From contig CAWBCT010000005.1 of NCBI GenBank assembly GCA_963787445.1, positions 128,001 through 192,000 on the forward strand: 64,000 nt of DNA, given 5' to 3'. The DNA is from an uncultured archaeon (lineage in GTDB: Archaea > Micrarchaeota > Micrarchaeia > Micrarchaeales > CABMGC01). This document shows positions 10,100 through 15,426 of this stretch, one piece after another. Made by a program: the position numbers and the translations under genes. Under the pieces are notes generated by a model. That model saw only the letters and a program-made list of their open reading frames with translations, had not been told where the DNA came from and searched no databases. Position 1 is the stretch's first letter. Each line of letters begins with the position of its first letter.

Positions 10100-10573
10100 T
10101 TACTGCTTCGCTTCGGCGGGCTTGTGCTCTGCAGGCTTCTCAGTCTTCGGGGGCTTGGGCGCCTTCGGCTTCGCCTCGGCGGCTGCCGGCTTTGCCTCGG
10201 GTGCTCCGGAGCTCCTGCCCGTCGTCCTTGAGACCACGTCCTTGATCGCTGCGGCAGCCTCGCCCGGCTTCTCGATTGCGACCGAGGAGCACGGCACTGT
10301 CATTCCTAGCGCCTTGCCCAGGTCTAGCTTGGCAGGAACATAAACGTAGTTTATCTTCTTCTGCTCGCACAGGTTGGGTATGTGCATGACGATCTCTTCG
10401 GGCTCGACGTCCTCGGCGATGACCACCAGCGATGAGAGCCCTCGCTCCACGCTCTTGGTGACCTCGTTGACTCCCTTACGAATCGATCCGCTCTGCCTGG
10501 CTAGCCTTACAGCTTCCAGTGCCTTGTCTGCTACTTCCTTTGTTACTTCGAATTTCACGTACGATTTCGCCAT
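10100..10573 (-). CDS. rpl7ae: 50S ribosomal protein L7Ae with Pro/Ala/Lys-rich tail
   Basis: [36 protein letters not shown]. Confidence 0.95.
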
Positions 10574-10610
10574 ATACCTCATCTCATTGGTTTAGTATTA
10601 TCATAGGGAT
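10574..10610 (-). promoter_or_regulatory. Putative K-turn/K-loop in rpl7ae 5' leader overlapping the SD
   Basis: Minus strand ACC-AAU-GA-GAU-GA-GGU directly before AU-AUG; alternative register CCC-UAU-GA..UGA-GG. Confidence 0.5.
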
Positions 10611-10780
10611 CCGGTTGCATTCTTAGCCCATCCCTTGCTGCCTTCCTAAGTTCCTCGTCACCAGCCTTTCCCTGAAGCCTGACTCGCTCCTGGGTCACGC
10701 CGGTTCGAAACGCGGATAGCACATGCCCTCCGGTTGGATTCCTTCTCCAGTGGTCCATGGTCCCTTCCGAATGAATCTGT
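10605..10780 (-). ncRNA. Candidate structured RNA of unknown class
   Basis: GC-rich intergenic block after a TATA-like TTTAATAA; long-range pairings CCGG/CCGG, GCAU/AUGC, GCUAUCC/GGAUGGGC, GAUUC/GAAUC. Confidence 0.4.
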
Positions 10781-10816
10781 TTCAACATAATATCTCACTT
10801 CTAGATTATTAAACCT

Positions 10817-13045
10817 TTAATCGCCCAGGAACGACTGCGCCGTAGGCGGCTCCGGAGGCTGGCCCTTGCGCTTCCTTATCTCGCGCACCACCTGGCTCTG
10901 CAGCTCCTTGGGCAGCTTCTCATAGCCCGCATATTCGGGGTACCAGATCGCCTTTCCGCTCGTTATTCCTCGGATCTCGTTCGAGAAGCCCTTGATGACC
11001 TCTGCGACCGGCATCTTCGCGATGACCGTGGCCTGCTCGTTCTCCTGCTGTATGTCGAGAACCTGTCCGCGCTTGCCCTGGACGAAGCTGATGATCTCTG
11101 AAAGGTAATCCTGCGGGATGTTGATCGTGAACTTCTGCTTCGGCTCGAGCAGGCTTACCCCGGACATGAGCATACCCGCGTAGATCGGCCTTCTCATGGC
11201 CGGAATTATCTGTGAAGGTCCGCGGTGCGCCGAGTCTTCGTGGATCTTTGCGTCTATCAGGCAGACTTTTATTCCCGTGCAGCGCTCCCTTGCGAGAGGT
11301 CCGTCCTTCATCGCGTTCTCGAACGCCTGGGTCAGGAGCTCCATCACCTCGTTGAGGTACTGGACTCCCTTGGTCGAGTCTATAAGCACGCTGTTGTTGC
11401 TGACGTAGACGATCCCCTTCGCCTCCTCTCTCGCCATCCCTGCCTTGATGACCGGCTCGATGTGCAGCTTTCCTTTCGGCTTTCCTTCCTTGAGCTCGCC
11501 CTCCTCGATCATCTTGAGCACGCCCGGCTCGAGCGGCTTCACGTCCACGTAGAATCGGTTGTGCCTGTTCTGCGACTTGCCCTCCACGTTCTTGGTCTCC
11601 GACTCGATGGTCTCGCGGTAGACGACTATCGGTTCGCTGGTGGTTATGTCTATCTTGTAATTGTCCCTGATCTTTGTCTCGATTACTTCCAGGTGGAGCT
11701 CTCCCATCCCGCTGACCAGGTGCTCTCCGGTCTCCTGGTTTAGTTCGATTCGGATGGTCTGGTCCTCCTTTGAAAGCTCGCGCATCGCCTCTATGAGCTT
11801 CATCAGGTCGCGGTTGTCCTTCGCCTCTATCGCCTTGGTCACGACCGGCTGCGAGTAGTGCCTTATCAGCTCGAAAGGCTCGATGTTGTCCTCGCTTACA
11901 GTGTCTCCTATTGAAAAGTTCTTCATGCCCACCAAAGCCGCAATGTTCCCGGCGGAGATGTGCTCCACGGTCACGCGCTCCGGTCCCATGTATATTCCGA
12001 CCTGCTGGACGCGCTGCGGATCGTTCATCCCGGTGCAGTAGACGCTGCTTCCCTTGCGCACCGTTCCCGAGAAGACCCGGCCGATGGCGATCTCGCCGCT
12101 GTGCGGGTCGTTCGCTATCCCGAAGATTACCATGTTCACCTTTCCGTCCGGGTTCACGGTCATCATGTCCTTGCCGTCGGGGCTCTCTATGTCGCCGTGC
12201 CAAAGGTGCTTGATTCGGTAGGGCTGGGCAGTCTGCGGGTTGGGCAGGTGCTCAATCATCATGGAAAGGCAGGCCTCGTCGATGGGTGCGTCGGCCTGGA
12301 GCTTTGCCTCAAGCTTCGCCTTCTCGTCTGCCGACTTGGCGGCGTTTATCTCCTGCGTAAGCTTGAAGATGTCCTTGAACGTCACGTTGTGGGTCTGCAT
12401 GATGCGGGATGAGATCGCCCACTTCTTTACCGCTGAACCGAAGCAGATGCTTCCGTCCTCTACCTTCACCTGCCACTTGCCCTTGAACTCTTCCGGAGCG
12501 AAGCGTGTGATCAGCTTGTTTATGTCCAGGATCAGCTTTAGAAGCCGTTCGAACGCCTGTTCGGGTGTGAGCTTTAGCTCATTCAGCAGTCGGTCGGTCT
12601 TGTTTACAAATAGAACTGGCTTTGCGCGCTCCTGAAGCGCCTGCCTCAGAACGGTCTCTGTCTGGGGCATTATTCCCTCGACAGGGTCCACAACCAGGAC
12701 CACTCCGTCAACTGCGCGCATGGCGCGGGTGACGTGTCCGCCGAAGTCAACGTGGCCCGGCGTGTCGATCAGGTTGATTATGTGGTCCTTCCCGTTGTAG
12801 GGGAATGAAAGCGAGATATCTGCGGACTTGATGGTCATTCTGCGGTCCTTTTCTATCGCTTCGTAGTTTGTGTAAAGCGCGTCTCCAGCTACCGCTCTGG
12901 AGATTATTCCTGCGCGGGCCAGAAGCGAGTCAGTAAGAGTTGTCTTGCCGTGGTGAACGTGGGCTATGATCGCTACGTTGCGGATCCTGGCGGTATCCCT
13001 CATGATGCCGACCACTTCCTCCGCTACGAACTCTTTCCTTACCAT
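10817..13045 (-). CDS. fusA: Elongation factor 2 (aEF-2)
   Basis: AHVHHGKTT, DTPGHVDFGG, NKTD, GMGELHL, diphthamide loop HEDSAHRG. Confidence 0.97.
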   Translation of the reverse strand: MVRKEFVAEEVVGIMRDTARIRNVAIIAHVHHGKTTLTDSLLARAGIISRAVAGDALYTNYEAIEKDRRMTIKSADISLSFPYNGKDHIINLIDTPGHVDFGGHVTRAMRAVDGVVLVVDPVEGIMPQTETVLRQALQERAKPVLFVNKTDRLLNELKLTPEQAFERLLKLILDINKLITRFAPEEFKGKWQVKVEDGSICFGSAVKKWAISSRIMQTHNVTFKDIFKLTQEINAAKSADEKAKLEAKLQADAPIDEACLSMMIEHLPNPQTAQPYRIKHLWHGDIESPDGKDMMTVNPDGKVNMVIFGIANDPHSGEIAIGRVFSGTVRKGSSVYCTGMNDPQRVQQVGIYMGPERVTVEHISAGNIAALVGMKNFSIGDTVSEDNIEPFELIRHYSQPVVTKAIEAKDNRDLMKLIEAMRELSKEDQTIRIELNQETGEHLVSGMGELHLEVIETKIRDNYKIDITTSEPIVVYRETIESETKNVEGKSQNRHNRFYVDVKPLEPGVLKMIEEGELKEGKPKGKLHIEPVIKAGMAREEAKGIVYVSNNSVLIDSTKGVQYLNEVMELLTQAFENAMKDGPLARERCTGIKVCLIDAKIHEDSAHRGPSQIIPAMRRPIYAGMLMSGVSLLEPKQKFTINIPQDYLSEIISFVQGKRGQVLDIQQENEQATVIAKMPVAEVIKGFSNEIRGITSGKAIWYPEYAGYEKLPKELQSQVVREIRKRKGQPPEPPTAQSFLGD

Positions 13046-13057
13046 GTGTTAACACCA

Positions 13058-13849
13058 TTACCTTGCCCTTCGCGCGATGCGCTCTCCTTCTGTGCGCTTC
13101 TTGATCGCATAGCTGTCAGGCGCCTTTGTCGCCGCCAGAAGTATCTCGTCGGCAAGTGCCTGGGCGAGCGTCTTCTTCTTGTTGAATGCGTTGATGAGCG
13201 CTGAAAGTGCGATGTTCCTTAGTGCGACGTCCACTCTGCGGTTCGAGCTGATTCCGACCGCGACGTTGTAGGAGATTCCTCCGTACCTTACCCGGGTTGT
13301 GTCCTCAATCGGCGCGGCGTTCTGCATCGCGTCTACGAAAACCTGGACCGGATTCTTGCCGGTCTTCTGGTGTATGGACTCGAAGGCGTCCTCGACTATG
13401 TGCATGACCTTGAGCTTCTTGCCCTGCAGCCTGCCCTCGGTTCGAATCACCTTGCCGCCGACCTTCTTTCCGGTGCCGCCGCGCATGAGCTTGTTCATGA
13501 GCCTCTCGACTATGTTAATGTGAGAGTTGTAGTAGGCCTGGTTCTTCCTCCTTCCGAACAGGTTCGGGTAGGGCTGGCGCGTGAACTTTATGTAGTTTAC
13601 TATGCTCTGGTCGGTTACCTGGATTGAGGAAAGGTCGTACTTCCCGAAGAGCAGAAGGACGGTGTCGTCTGCCAGGTGCTTTGAAGGGTTAGAGGCCTTG
13701 GACTCGCCTGCCGGAGCATTCTCTGCGCTCTTTGGTGCGGCTCTTCGCCTAGGCTTGGGAGCCGGTGCGGCAGCTGGGATGACCACAGGTAGTGCAGGCT
13801 GCACTTTCTCGATTTCAGTTGACACGCTAGCTTCCTCTGCCATGAACAT
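13058..13849 (-). CDS. rps7: 30S ribosomal protein S7 with long N-terminal extension
   Basis: LFGKYD, IVERLMNKLM, NPVQVFVDA, RVRYGGISY, ERIARRAR. Confidence 0.95.
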   Translation of the reverse strand: MFMAEEASVSTEIEKVQPALPVVIPAAAPAPKPRRRAAPKSAENAPAGESKASNPSKHLADDTVLLLFGKYDLSSIQVTDQSIVNYIKFTRQPYPNLFGRRKNQAYYNSHINIVERLMNKLMRGGTGKKVGGKVIRTEGRLQGKKLKVMHIVEDAFESIHQKTGKNPVQVFVDAMQNAAPIEDTTRVRYGGISYNVAVGISSNRRVDVALRNIALSALINAFNKKKTLAQALADEILLAATKAPDSYAIKKRTEGERIARRAR

Positions 13850-14277
13850 TACCTCTTTGGCTTCTCCTTCTTGCCCTTGACTACCTGATAAATGTCTGCG
13901 CCGTTGACCGCGATAACCTTGTACTTCAGGCCGGGTATGCAGCCCATCTGGCCTCGCTGCGAGCCGCCGAGCCCTTGTATGGTTACCTCGTCGTGTTCCT
14001 CAATCATGTTTATCGAGCCGTCGTAGGGGACGAATGCTCCTACCACCTTTCCGTTCTTGGTTAGCTGCACTCGGACGCACTTGATTAGCCCCGAGTGGGG
14101 TTGCTTCTGCTGCAGCACGAACTTCTGGAGCACAAGCGCCTTTGCCATCGGAACGCATCCGACCGGGTCGTACTTCTGCTTCAGCTTGAAATATCTCCTC
14201 TTCCACCACTTCTTCAGTAGCCTTTGCTTCTTGCGCTTCCTTTGAAGTTCTTTTGCGGCGAATTCTCCTTTTGGCAA
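13849..14277 (-). CDS. rps12: 30S ribosomal protein S12 (uS12), TTG start
   Basis: KQPHSGLIKCVRVQL.KNGK, AFVPYDG, GKKEKPKR. Confidence 0.95.
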   Translation of the reverse strand: MPKGEFAAKELQRKRKKQRLLKKWWKRRYFKLKQKYDPVGCVPMAKALVLQKFVLQQKQPHSGLIKCVRVQLTKNGKVVGAFVPYDGSINMIEEHDEVTIQGLGGSQRGQMGCIPGLKYKVIAVNGADIYQVVKGKKEKPKR

Positions 14278-14285
14278 TTATACAC

Positions 14286-14597
14286 CTATGCGTATTCCTC
14301 TTTCAGTATGTTGGAGTTGCCCTCTGCGAGTATCGCGAGCGCGTTGACCGAGTGCGGCTTTCCGCACAGAGCACCAAGCTCGAGAGAGTTTCCATTAAAT
14401 GCGATTGTGCGGATTCCAGATACCTTGCACATGTGAAGTATGTCCTCGACAACCTCCTTCTTGCCCTTTGCTGCAACTACGACTGCGTGCGCCTTGGCAT
14501 TGCTGATGTACCTCATGACGTCGCGACTGCCAAACGTGACTTTGCCGGTGTCTATCACGAGTCTAAGGTCGTTGTTAAGGTCACTCACGTTAATCAT
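14286..14597 (-). CDS. rpl30e: 50S ribosomal protein L30e
   Basis: TGKVTFG, GNSLELGALCGKPH, GNSNIL; upstream of rps12. Confidence 0.93.
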   Translation of the reverse strand: MINVSDLNNDLRLVIDTGKVTFGSRDVMRYISNAKAHAVVVAAKGKKEVVEDILHMCKVSGIRTIAFNGNSLELGALCGKPHSVNALAILAEGNSNILKEEYA

Positions 14598-14660
14598 CTA
14601 TCTTTGGGTTCGGCCAACGGGCCTCATTACCAGAACGCCAACGAACGCAATTGCATTCGG
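14598..14660 (-). promoter_or_regulatory. Structured 5' leader of rpl30e with canonical K-turn (14607-14631) and hairpin (14642-14659)
   Basis: GGU-AAU-GA-GGCC-cguu-GGCC-GA-ACC; CGAAUGC-aauu-GCGUUCG; TATA-like TTTAAATA at about 14695-14702. Confidence 0.7.
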
Positions 14661-14799
14661 GAGTATAAGGTACTAGTAATTTGCACAAAAAGGTATTTAA
14701 ATGTTCATTAGTGGTTAGCGACTGCAATGTTGGCAGATTTTGGACGGACAAACATCTGCAGCTTTATATATCTGATTAAATGTCAACTATTCCGATGCT

Positions 14800-15426
14800 A
14801 TGGCCCAGACGAAGTACCGGATCCTTGAAAACGAGCATTTTCAGGGCAAGGACCGCACCCTTTATAGAATACAGGCAGTTCGCTCGTTCAAAGGCGTCAG
14901 GGAGGGCGATATGGGGGGATTTCTAGAGTCGGAGAGGAATCTTTCTCACGATGGAAACGCATGGGTTGGCGGGAATGCAAAGGCGTATGGAGAAACCTGT
15001 GTTTTCGAGAATGGCAGACTTCTTGATACGGCACATGCAATAAACGCCTGGATCGAGGGAAACTCTGTTGTTTTTCAGAATGCCAGACTGAAAGGGACAA
15101 GGGTGGAGGGAAGCGCGAAGGTAGGAGGAGAGGTCTTGGTTGACGGCTGGGCCTGGATAAAAGACAATGCACGGGTGCTGGGAAACACGGAAGTCAGGTA
15201 TGGATGGGTCGGAGGCAACGCTCTGCTCTTTGGAGGCATAATCGATGGAGGTGTGTTTGTAGAGGGTAATGTGAAGATATTTGGGGGGTATATCTCAACG
15301 CACACGAAATTAGGTGGCGTTATAGACAGTGGCGTTCTTCGTGGAGAAGAAAACCCGTTCAAGGCTCTTATCAGGACAGGGGCAGAAATAATAAGAGTTC
15401 CAGCGCGAACGTTCATACCGGCATGA
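14800..15426 (+). CDS. Phage-related left-handed beta-helix (hexapeptide repeat) protein
   Basis: N-terminal KY..RTLYRIQAVRSF..V..GDMGGFLESERNLSH.GNAWV followed by GNA.V hexapeptide repeats. Confidence 0.75.
   Translation: MAQTKYRILENEHFQGKDRTLYRIQAVRSFKGVREGDMGGFLESERNLSHDGNAWVGGNAKAYGETCVFENGRLLDTAHAINAWIEGNSVVFQNARLKGTRVEGSAKVGGEVLVDGWAWIKDNARVLGNTEVRYGWVGGNALLFGGIIDGGVFVEGNVKIFGGYISTHTKLGGVIDSGVLRGEENPFKALIRTGAEIIRVPARTFIPA

Follow-up and report, generated by a model that had tools for sequence, protein, structure and literature searches.

The question raised by this locus is why an archaeal gene for ribosomal protein L30e should be preceded by a short hairpin with the parts of a kink-turn (K-turn), and which protein, if any, would recognise it. 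The gene, rpl30e, lies in the window, i.e. the whole 64,000-nt stretch of DNA of an uncultured archaeon (Micrarchaeota) that was analysed, and it heads the cluster rpl30e-rps12-rps7-EF2. In the first-pass annotation the hairpin had been described as a textbook K-turn and proposed as a feedback switch of this cluster, operated by L30e or L7Ae. Our analysis confirmed the observation and partly supported the interpretation. The object under selection is most simply a K-turn, since the positions that are invariant among related genomes are those that define one, and a ribosomal protein probably uses it to hold down translation of the cluster. The reading that we prefer, with a probability of about 0.4, is that the rpl30e-rps12-rps7-EF2 mRNA carries, in its 5' leader, a protein-dependent K-turn operator bound by L7Ae. 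The features on which the argument relies are collected in Table 1.

Table 1. Features of the rpl30e cluster, its leader and the l7ae leader site (positions are those of the window).
Feature	Position	Strand	Remarks
TATA box TTTAAATA of the rpl30e promoter	14702..14709	-	read in the sequence
Hairpin 1, CGAAUGC-AAUU-GCGUUCG	14642..14659	-	7 bp; directly 5' of the K-turn
K-turn hairpin	14607..14631	-	C stem, bulge, G.A + A.G, NC stem, loop
C stem, 5' strand, GGU	14631-14629	-	
Bulge, AAU	14628-14626	-	
G1b A2b	14625-14624	-	
NC stem, 5' strand, GGCC	14623-14620	-	
Loop, CGUU	14619-14616	-	
NC stem, 3' strand, GGCC	14615-14612	-	
G2n A1n	14611-14610	-	
C stem, 3' strand, ACC	14609-14607	-	
Shine-Dalgarno (SD)-like GAUGAU	14593..14598	-	matches part of the 16S anti-SD of this genome
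rpl30e	14286..14588	-	GTG start by alignment; in-frame ATG at 14597 is an alternative start
rps12	13849..14277	-	Pfam PF00164; UUG start 8 nt past the rpl30e stop
rps7	13058..13849	-	Pfam PF00177; start overlaps the rps12 stop by 1 nt
EF2 gene	10817..13045	-	742 aa; named from its translation; starts 12 nt past the rps7 stop
l7ae leader motif, ACC-AAU-GA-GAU-GA-GGU	10576..10591	-	3' strand GAGGU is the l7ae SD; ATG at 10573

The product of rpl30e is recognised by the NCBIfam equivalog model NF002172 (99.3 bits, with a cut-off of 77) and by Pfam PF01248, and its closest solved relatives are archaeal L30e proteins. With S12 and S7 assigned by Pfam and EF2 by reading of its translation, the gene order L30e-S12-S7-EF2 given in the first pass was verified. 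A GGUG (14286-14283) overlaps the rpl30e stop codon ahead of rps12, and the genes encoding L7Ae and S28e are located further downstream of the EF2 gene. The divergent neighbour of the rpl30e promoter (14800-15426, plus strand) encodes a protein of 208 aa without a Pfam match, for which the YdcK family was found only below threshold (53.7 bits versus a cut-off of 350).

Direct reading of the minus strand from 14631 to 14607 gave GGU-AAU-GA-GGCC-CGUU-GGCC-GA-ACC (25 nt), and every part of the K-turn claimed for this strand was found in its place. Among contigs from four DNA runs two span the site, and these showed zero differences. The C helix consists of 3 Watson-Crick pairs in the window and of 3-5 pairs across the nine leaders of the genus that were compared, with GGU/ACC invariant; the NC helix keeps GGC/GCC throughout, followed by C-G, U-A or U.G as the fourth pair. 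At the sequence level the tandem G.A/A.G pairs of the window are given by GA/GA; position 2n is A in 8 of the 9 leaders, and in one genome (G004) position 2b is C, which should break the K-turn. The word 'textbook' thus suits the window copy, with its G at 2n, but not the relatives. When RNAalifold was applied to the leaders of the genus, the sole consensus structure consisted of two stems around a 5-nt/2-nt internal loop, a predicted fold that is compatible with a K-turn.

The identity of two base pairs in this element bears on how it would fold. As stated by Huang, Ashraf and Lilley 2019 (PMC6298567), a Watson-Crick pair at 3b:3n prevents ion-induced folding of a K-turn, C:G at -1b:-1n favours it, and addition of L7Ae folds every K-turn tested. 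In the rpl30e K-turn, 3b:3n is G:C and -1b:-1n is U:A. Because of these pairs and the short C stem, the published rules predict protein-dependent folding, and the rpl30e K-turn should fold stably only with protein, as a switch needs. The first-pass annotation had also pointed to a competing pairing for the 3' strand (UUGG-C-GUUC/GAAC-CCAA). This pairing does occur in the predicted minimum-energy fold of the window, but it rests on a duplication peculiar to the window, and the 8 relatives lack it. Another candidate, pairing of the predicted 5' end with the bulged strand, was rejected: the minimum-energy folds of 4-5 of the 9 leaders include it, yet it is no better than in shuffled controls, reaching only -7.2 to -7.6 kcal/mol in 5 of the 9 leaders, being equalled by 38-85 of 500 shuffles and falling below the mean strength of the shuffles in 4 of the 9.

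Rfam searches over 10400-14800 gave nothing at the K-turn site at E-values up to 10 (U4, snoRNAs and ribosomal-protein leaders included), and over the window just three tRNAs reached the gathering score. A box C/D sRNA was also considered and rejected. Such RNAs carry C/D and C'/D' boxes with guide regions of about 10-12 nt between them; a 25-nt hairpin with a 4-nt loop, at which no snoRNA matched, has no space for guides.

A bare K-turn descriptor is weak evidence by itself. In the 1.05-Mb genome, both strands taken together, a descriptor of a K-turn hairpin (C stem of 3 bp, bulge of 3 nt, GA, NC stem of 4 bp or more, loop of 3-9 and GA) had 72 matches when G-U pairs were allowed and 12 when pairing was Watson-Crick only. 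The exact motif, by comparison, was found once per genome, and always before rpl30e, in 9 of the 11 genomes of the genus, which are all nine that could be assessed (rpl30e of G008 is cut by a contig end, and G010 is 59% complete, with L30e not found). The L30e proteins of these nine species are only 65-72% identical to the window protein. Of the 29 positions in the element, 19 do not vary across the nine genomes, among them those of the bulge, the G of the bulged strand, three G-C pairs on either side and A at 1n. The four-fold degenerate sites of rpl30e in the same genomes are saturated (0 of 16 invariant, pairwise identity of 0.37), 1 of its 99 third codon positions is invariant, and the rest of the leader gave no reliable alignment among the genomes of the genus. 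Set against saturated synonymous sites, 19 invariant positions are more than chance can explain, and the comparison indicates that the element is under strong nucleotide-level selection in same-genus relatives.

The loops are variable (CGUU, UUCG, UUU, UUA, UUUU and UAUU) and the two conserved blocks differ in their spacing too; variation confined to loop, distal stem and spacing is what an RNA hairpin would show. A covariation check, recommended in the first pass, did not add to this, because the core is invariant: there was one compensatory pair, a result equalled by 233 of 500 shuffles and not significant. In the leader of G004 (L002) an AUG inside the K-turn is in frame into rpl30e without a stop codon, and an N-terminally extended L30e is formally possible in that genome.

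The second hairpin and the TATA box that had been reported ahead of the K-turn were both found (Table 1). In all nine leaders of the genus a box reading TTTAAATA or TTTATATA precedes the K-turn by 50-61 nt, and similar TATA boxes are present in most relatives. The transcript would start about 23-24 nt downstream of the box, near 14678 in the window. Hairpin 1 belongs to the predicted minimum-energy fold of all nine leaders of the genus despite their differing sequence. Inspection by eye of leaders without the K-turn in other genera of the family (L011, L012, L013, L019 and L022) revealed similar hairpins of the form (G/A)AUGC-loop-GCAU(C/U), about 20-40 nt before rpl30e, and hairpin 1 may be an older element of this leader. 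In another genus (L009 of G014) the rpl30e leader contains the hairpin GAUGGAUU-CUUU-AAUUCAUC with GAGA on both flanks. Judged again by eye, these flanks could pair as tandem G.A without the 3-nt bulge, and this part of the leader might hold another kind of protein-binding site.

Two statements on the translation start had to be amended. That rpl30e has no GGTG SD is literally true, but the 3' end of the genome's own 16S rRNA reads ...GAUCACCUCAA and GAUGAU matches 4-5 of the anti-SD bases, so this is a weak SD and not an absent one. The distance of 9 nt between the K-turn and rpl30e holds for the ATG, but the start codon of the relatives aligns with the GTG (also present at the aligned start in two other genera), and the K-turn therefore lies 18 nt from the likely start. 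In all nine leaders the end of the K-turn is 13-18 nt from the start codon and adjoins the SD-like bases, and in 6 of the 9 there is a TGAT 3-5 nt before the start codon. The SD-like element and the start codon are outside the K-turn, and there is no intron.

Conservation in relatives, whose absence the first-pass annotation had named as refuting its proposal, was found in every assessable genome of the genus but not beyond it. None of the 20 rpl30e leaders that could be assessed in other genera of the order has the K-turn element. In 401 genomes of the phylum the exact pattern was found in the genus and at two stray places (G269 and G026), with 1 match for the reversed control. Further rpl30e loci were obtained by a profile search of genome contigs with the L30e alignment (the best 80 of 593 relatives, all of them Micrarchaeota); after removal of 4 loci shorter than 1000 nt, the element was absent in 72 of the remaining 76, and the 4 with it were of the genus type. 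A covariance model built from the nine copies and run against 91 genomes of the family recovered the window genome and 5 of 6 other genomes of the genus, and its sole further match in this set (G173, E-value of 0.056) was partial and away from L30e and L7Ae genes. One of the genomes counted as being without the motifs (G038) is unpublished. Confinement to one genus weakens the claim of a general circuit.

Several broader searches were rejected as sources of further sites. Matches resembling a K-turn were found in the sense orientation in 18 of the 76 rpl30e leaders versus 6 of 76 for the antisense control, and those before rpl30e outside the genus, mostly weak 3-bp, G-U-rich pairing of the SD (GAUGA) with GCUGAUUU codons, were judged spurious. 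Metagenome matches to a degenerate 18-base pattern (120 stretches) were put down to chance, an L30e gene lying beside 0 of the 80 retrieved. A genome-wide search for a regulon was abandoned, the loose descriptors being too common (820, 72-386 and 252 matches).

The second site of interest is located before l7ae, a gene identified by TIGR03677 (155.6 bits versus a cut-off of 134.6). The motif ACC-AAU-GA-(G/A)A(U/C)-GA-GGU precedes l7ae in all 11 genomes of the genus. Its core occurs once per genome in 18 of 41 relatives (reversed control: 0): the 11 of the genus all have it, against 7 of 14 others in the family and 0 of 16 from two other families; adjacency of the core pattern to l7ae is established within the genus alone. 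One look-alike of the site (C3:5957) falls within a coding frame. The word AAUGAG of the bulged strand is common to the l7ae leader site and the rpl30e K-turn, and in l7ae it pairs onto the SD. By analogy with other archaea, the l7ae leader site, which is K-turn- or K-loop-like, probably serves autoregulation by L7Ae. Because the core reaches other genomes of the family, the l7ae site predates its counterpart before rpl30e, which has the look of a subsequent recruitment to that consensus.

The surroundings of the l7ae site differ among genomes. In the window the SD of l7ae is 2 nt from the ATG, as against 6 nt in most relatives (leaders L250-L259). An insert of about 200 nt (10592-10816, minus strand) separates the EF2 stop codon from the l7ae leader in the window, and one is also found in G004 (L250), with no obvious likeness between the two; in other genomes of the genus the gap between EF2 and l7ae is only about 40-60 nt. 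A TATA-like GGTTTAATA is located just past the EF2 stop codon, at the insert. The insert of the window further includes an ORF (10579-10788, 69 aa) without a Pfam or NCBIfam match and a match to the K-turn descriptor, GUUUC-GA-ACCGGC...GCUGGU-GAC-GA-GGAAC (10706-10650).

L7Ae is the general and very tight K-turn binder of archaea, and it is the protein that we favour as the ligand of the rpl30e element. K-turns mediate repression by L7Ae of its own and of other mRNAs, as reported by Daume et al. 2017 (PMC5539422), and the A at 2n that prevails in the genus has a precedent in Kt-23 of Thelohania solenopsae, which is bound by L7Ae of A. fulgidus (Huang and Lilley 2014, PMC3985660). The reading as a translational operator worked by a protein follows from the prediction of a protein-dependent fold together with the placement of the K-turn 13-18 nt before the start, against the SD-like bases. 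In the free state the K-turn would not be stably folded by itself. L7Ae in excess of its rRNA and sRNA sites would bind and fold it, and the resulting protein-RNA knot, set against the weak SD-like element, would reduce loading of the 30S subunit on rpl30e. Expression of the downstream cistrons should fall too, because their spacing is close (gaps of 8 and 12 nt and an overlap of 1 nt). We infer from sequence the transcription of the element, its folding, the identity of its binder and the direction of its effect. Counting against L7Ae, the K-turn includes neither the SD nor the start codon, unlike the l7ae leader site, and a placement ahead of rpl30e is no less natural for autogenous control by L30e.

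Autogenous control by L30e is the alternative that survives best, although we regard it as doubtful. Here L30e beyond its 23S rRNA site would bind the same K-turn, with the same occlusion, and would govern the L30e-S12-S7-EF2 unit as the archaeal equivalent of the RPL30 circuit in yeast. As a rule, the protein that binds a ribosomal-protein leader is encoded in the same operon, and the K-turn stands in L30e's own leader as the sole copy per genome. L30e moreover belongs to the family of K-turn-binding proteins (PF01248, NF002172), and the 5+2 internal loop has the shape of the yeast site. L30e of S. acidocaldarius is reported to bind the yeast L30 mRNA and to regulate it in vivo (cited by Daume et al. 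2017, PMC5539422). On the other hand, an archaeal L30e-mRNA interaction was not found in the literature searched, L7Ae would compete for any well-formed K-turn, the AAUGAG word as in the l7ae leader points to a shared binder, and the element is confined to one genus. K-turn descriptors are present in the genome's own 23S rRNA; none of the 8-11-mers of the site was found in its own 23S or 16S rRNA, and mimicry of rRNA sequence is therefore not evident. Were L30e nevertheless the binder, this would be the first archaeal case of its autogenous control through a K-turn, arisen independently of yeast RPL30 in one genus, setting the whole L30e-S12-S7-EF2 unit by coupling and possibly competing with L7Ae, so that the operon would read both free pools; we hold this extended version to be equally tentative.

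It is unlikely that the element is a structured part of the leader with another role in RNA, such as mRNA stabilisation, a processing signal or a ribosome stand-by site, free of feedback by a K-turn protein and perhaps acting with hairpin 1. Such a role would agree with a K-turn that is clear of the SD and the start codon, with the C tolerated at 2b in G004 and with the lack of significant covariation, and also with the older and more widespread occurrence of hairpin 1, which suggests that the leader was structured before the K-turn arose. The invariant positions are nevertheless the K-turn-defining ones (bulge, GA/RA dinucleotides and flanking G-C pairs), at which a plain hairpin would allow compensatory change, as hairpin 1 does.

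Very unlikely is the absence of any RNA structure, with the motif being a DNA-level site for a regulator that binds downstream of the promoter, a conserved uORF or a chance resemblance: a conserved AUG (L2-L3-G1b) does open an ORF of 9-13 codons in 8 of the 9 leaders (the frame in G004 continues into rpl30e) and K-turn descriptors are common in the genome (12-72 matches, or 252 with a looser one), but the uORF is rejected because two different frames are used across GCCRAACCAA, the conserved block on the 3' side (PNQ in 6 leaders, SQT or RTQ in 3), so that the peptide is not what is conserved, the block spacing varies with self-complementary inserts, unlike that of a fixed-spacing DNA site, and the degree of invariance relative to synonymous sites cannot be due to chance.

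The L7Ae-bound operator that we prefer can be compared with several known systems. With the archaeal l7ae-type operators (PMC5539422, PMC6298567) it would share a K-turn in a predicted mRNA leader close to the ribosome-binding site, short stems, pairs at 3b:3n and -1b:-1n that predict folding only with protein, and a gene of the L7Ae/L30e family. It differs from them in the gene, which here is rpl30e, in the bulge (AAU, as against GAU in the six l7ae leaders of PMC6298567), in an SD that lies outside the K-turn and in its confinement to one genus. The 2n = A of 8 of the 9 copies in the genus, giving G.A and then A.A, is the rare departure also seen in Kt-23 of T. solenopsae (PMC3985660), which differs as an rRNA element, and the window copy has the standard G. 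The K-turn of the U4 snRNA 5' stem-loop likewise has an AAU bulge followed by GA and G and an NC stem closed by a loop, but it belongs to a eukaryotic snRNA bound by 15.5K/Snu13, and the U4 family of Rfam was unmatched here at E-values up to 10.

The yeast RPL30 element is also a K-turn (5+2 loop) in the L30 gene's own transcript and follows the logic of feedback by a K-turn protein. The yeast K-turn includes the 5' splice site and controls splicing and translation, whereas the element described here is intron-free, stands at the head of a four-gene operon of prokaryotic type and leaves the start region outside the K-turn. Given its restriction to one genus, a common origin with the yeast element is not supported. 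Among prokaryotes, S7 controls the bacterial str operon (S12-S7-EF-G), and control by L1 is known in Methanococcus. In these systems, too, one ribosomal protein sets the translation of a tightly coupled operon through an RNA site, either in a leader or between cistrons, and S12-S7-EF2 parallels the str operon; they differ in that the operator here would stand in front of an additional rpl30e cistron at the 5' end, with a K-turn in place of a mimic of an S7 or L1 rRNA site.

The first-pass statement that no archaeal analogue was known to be described stood up to full-text searches, which gave no archaeal rpl30e K-turn leader, though literature and supplements beyond these could bear on the point. 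Eckert and Weinberg describe 20 ribosomal leaders, which do not include this one, in a paper where the words L30, K-turn, kink and L7Ae do not occur, and the searched part of the supplements of Daume et al. contains neither 'L30' nor 'ribosomal protein'. The proposal is therefore one of a known kind of feedback at a new gene, rpl30e.

K-turn feedback is experimentally known for archaeal l7ae, for a few other mRNAs and for yeast RPL30, and a K-turn of archaeal rpl30e would link both lines. If L7Ae binds, its regulon would extend to a core operon of ribosomal proteins and an elongation factor; if L30e binds, autoregulation of L30 would have arisen twice, in archaea and in eukaryotes. A one-genus rpl30e element beside a family-wide AAUGAG site of l7ae would constitute a dated example of operator recruitment. 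The organisms are uncultured, yet the site is short (25-30 nt) and can be tested in vitro or in a published E. coli reporter, with the natural variants at 2n (A/G) and 2b (C) as ready-made controls.

Two remarks concern the assembly of the window genome (G000). Identical stretches occur on several of its small contigs (C3, C11, C16, C18 and C19), so that the assembly holds redundant or strain-variant contigs, which fits its contamination figure of 5.4%. Outside the window (G000:C5:105600-119000), evenly spaced recurrent matches to a K-turn descriptor revealed a long array whose units, almost identical, follow each other at about 303 nt; it is probably a repetitive coding region.
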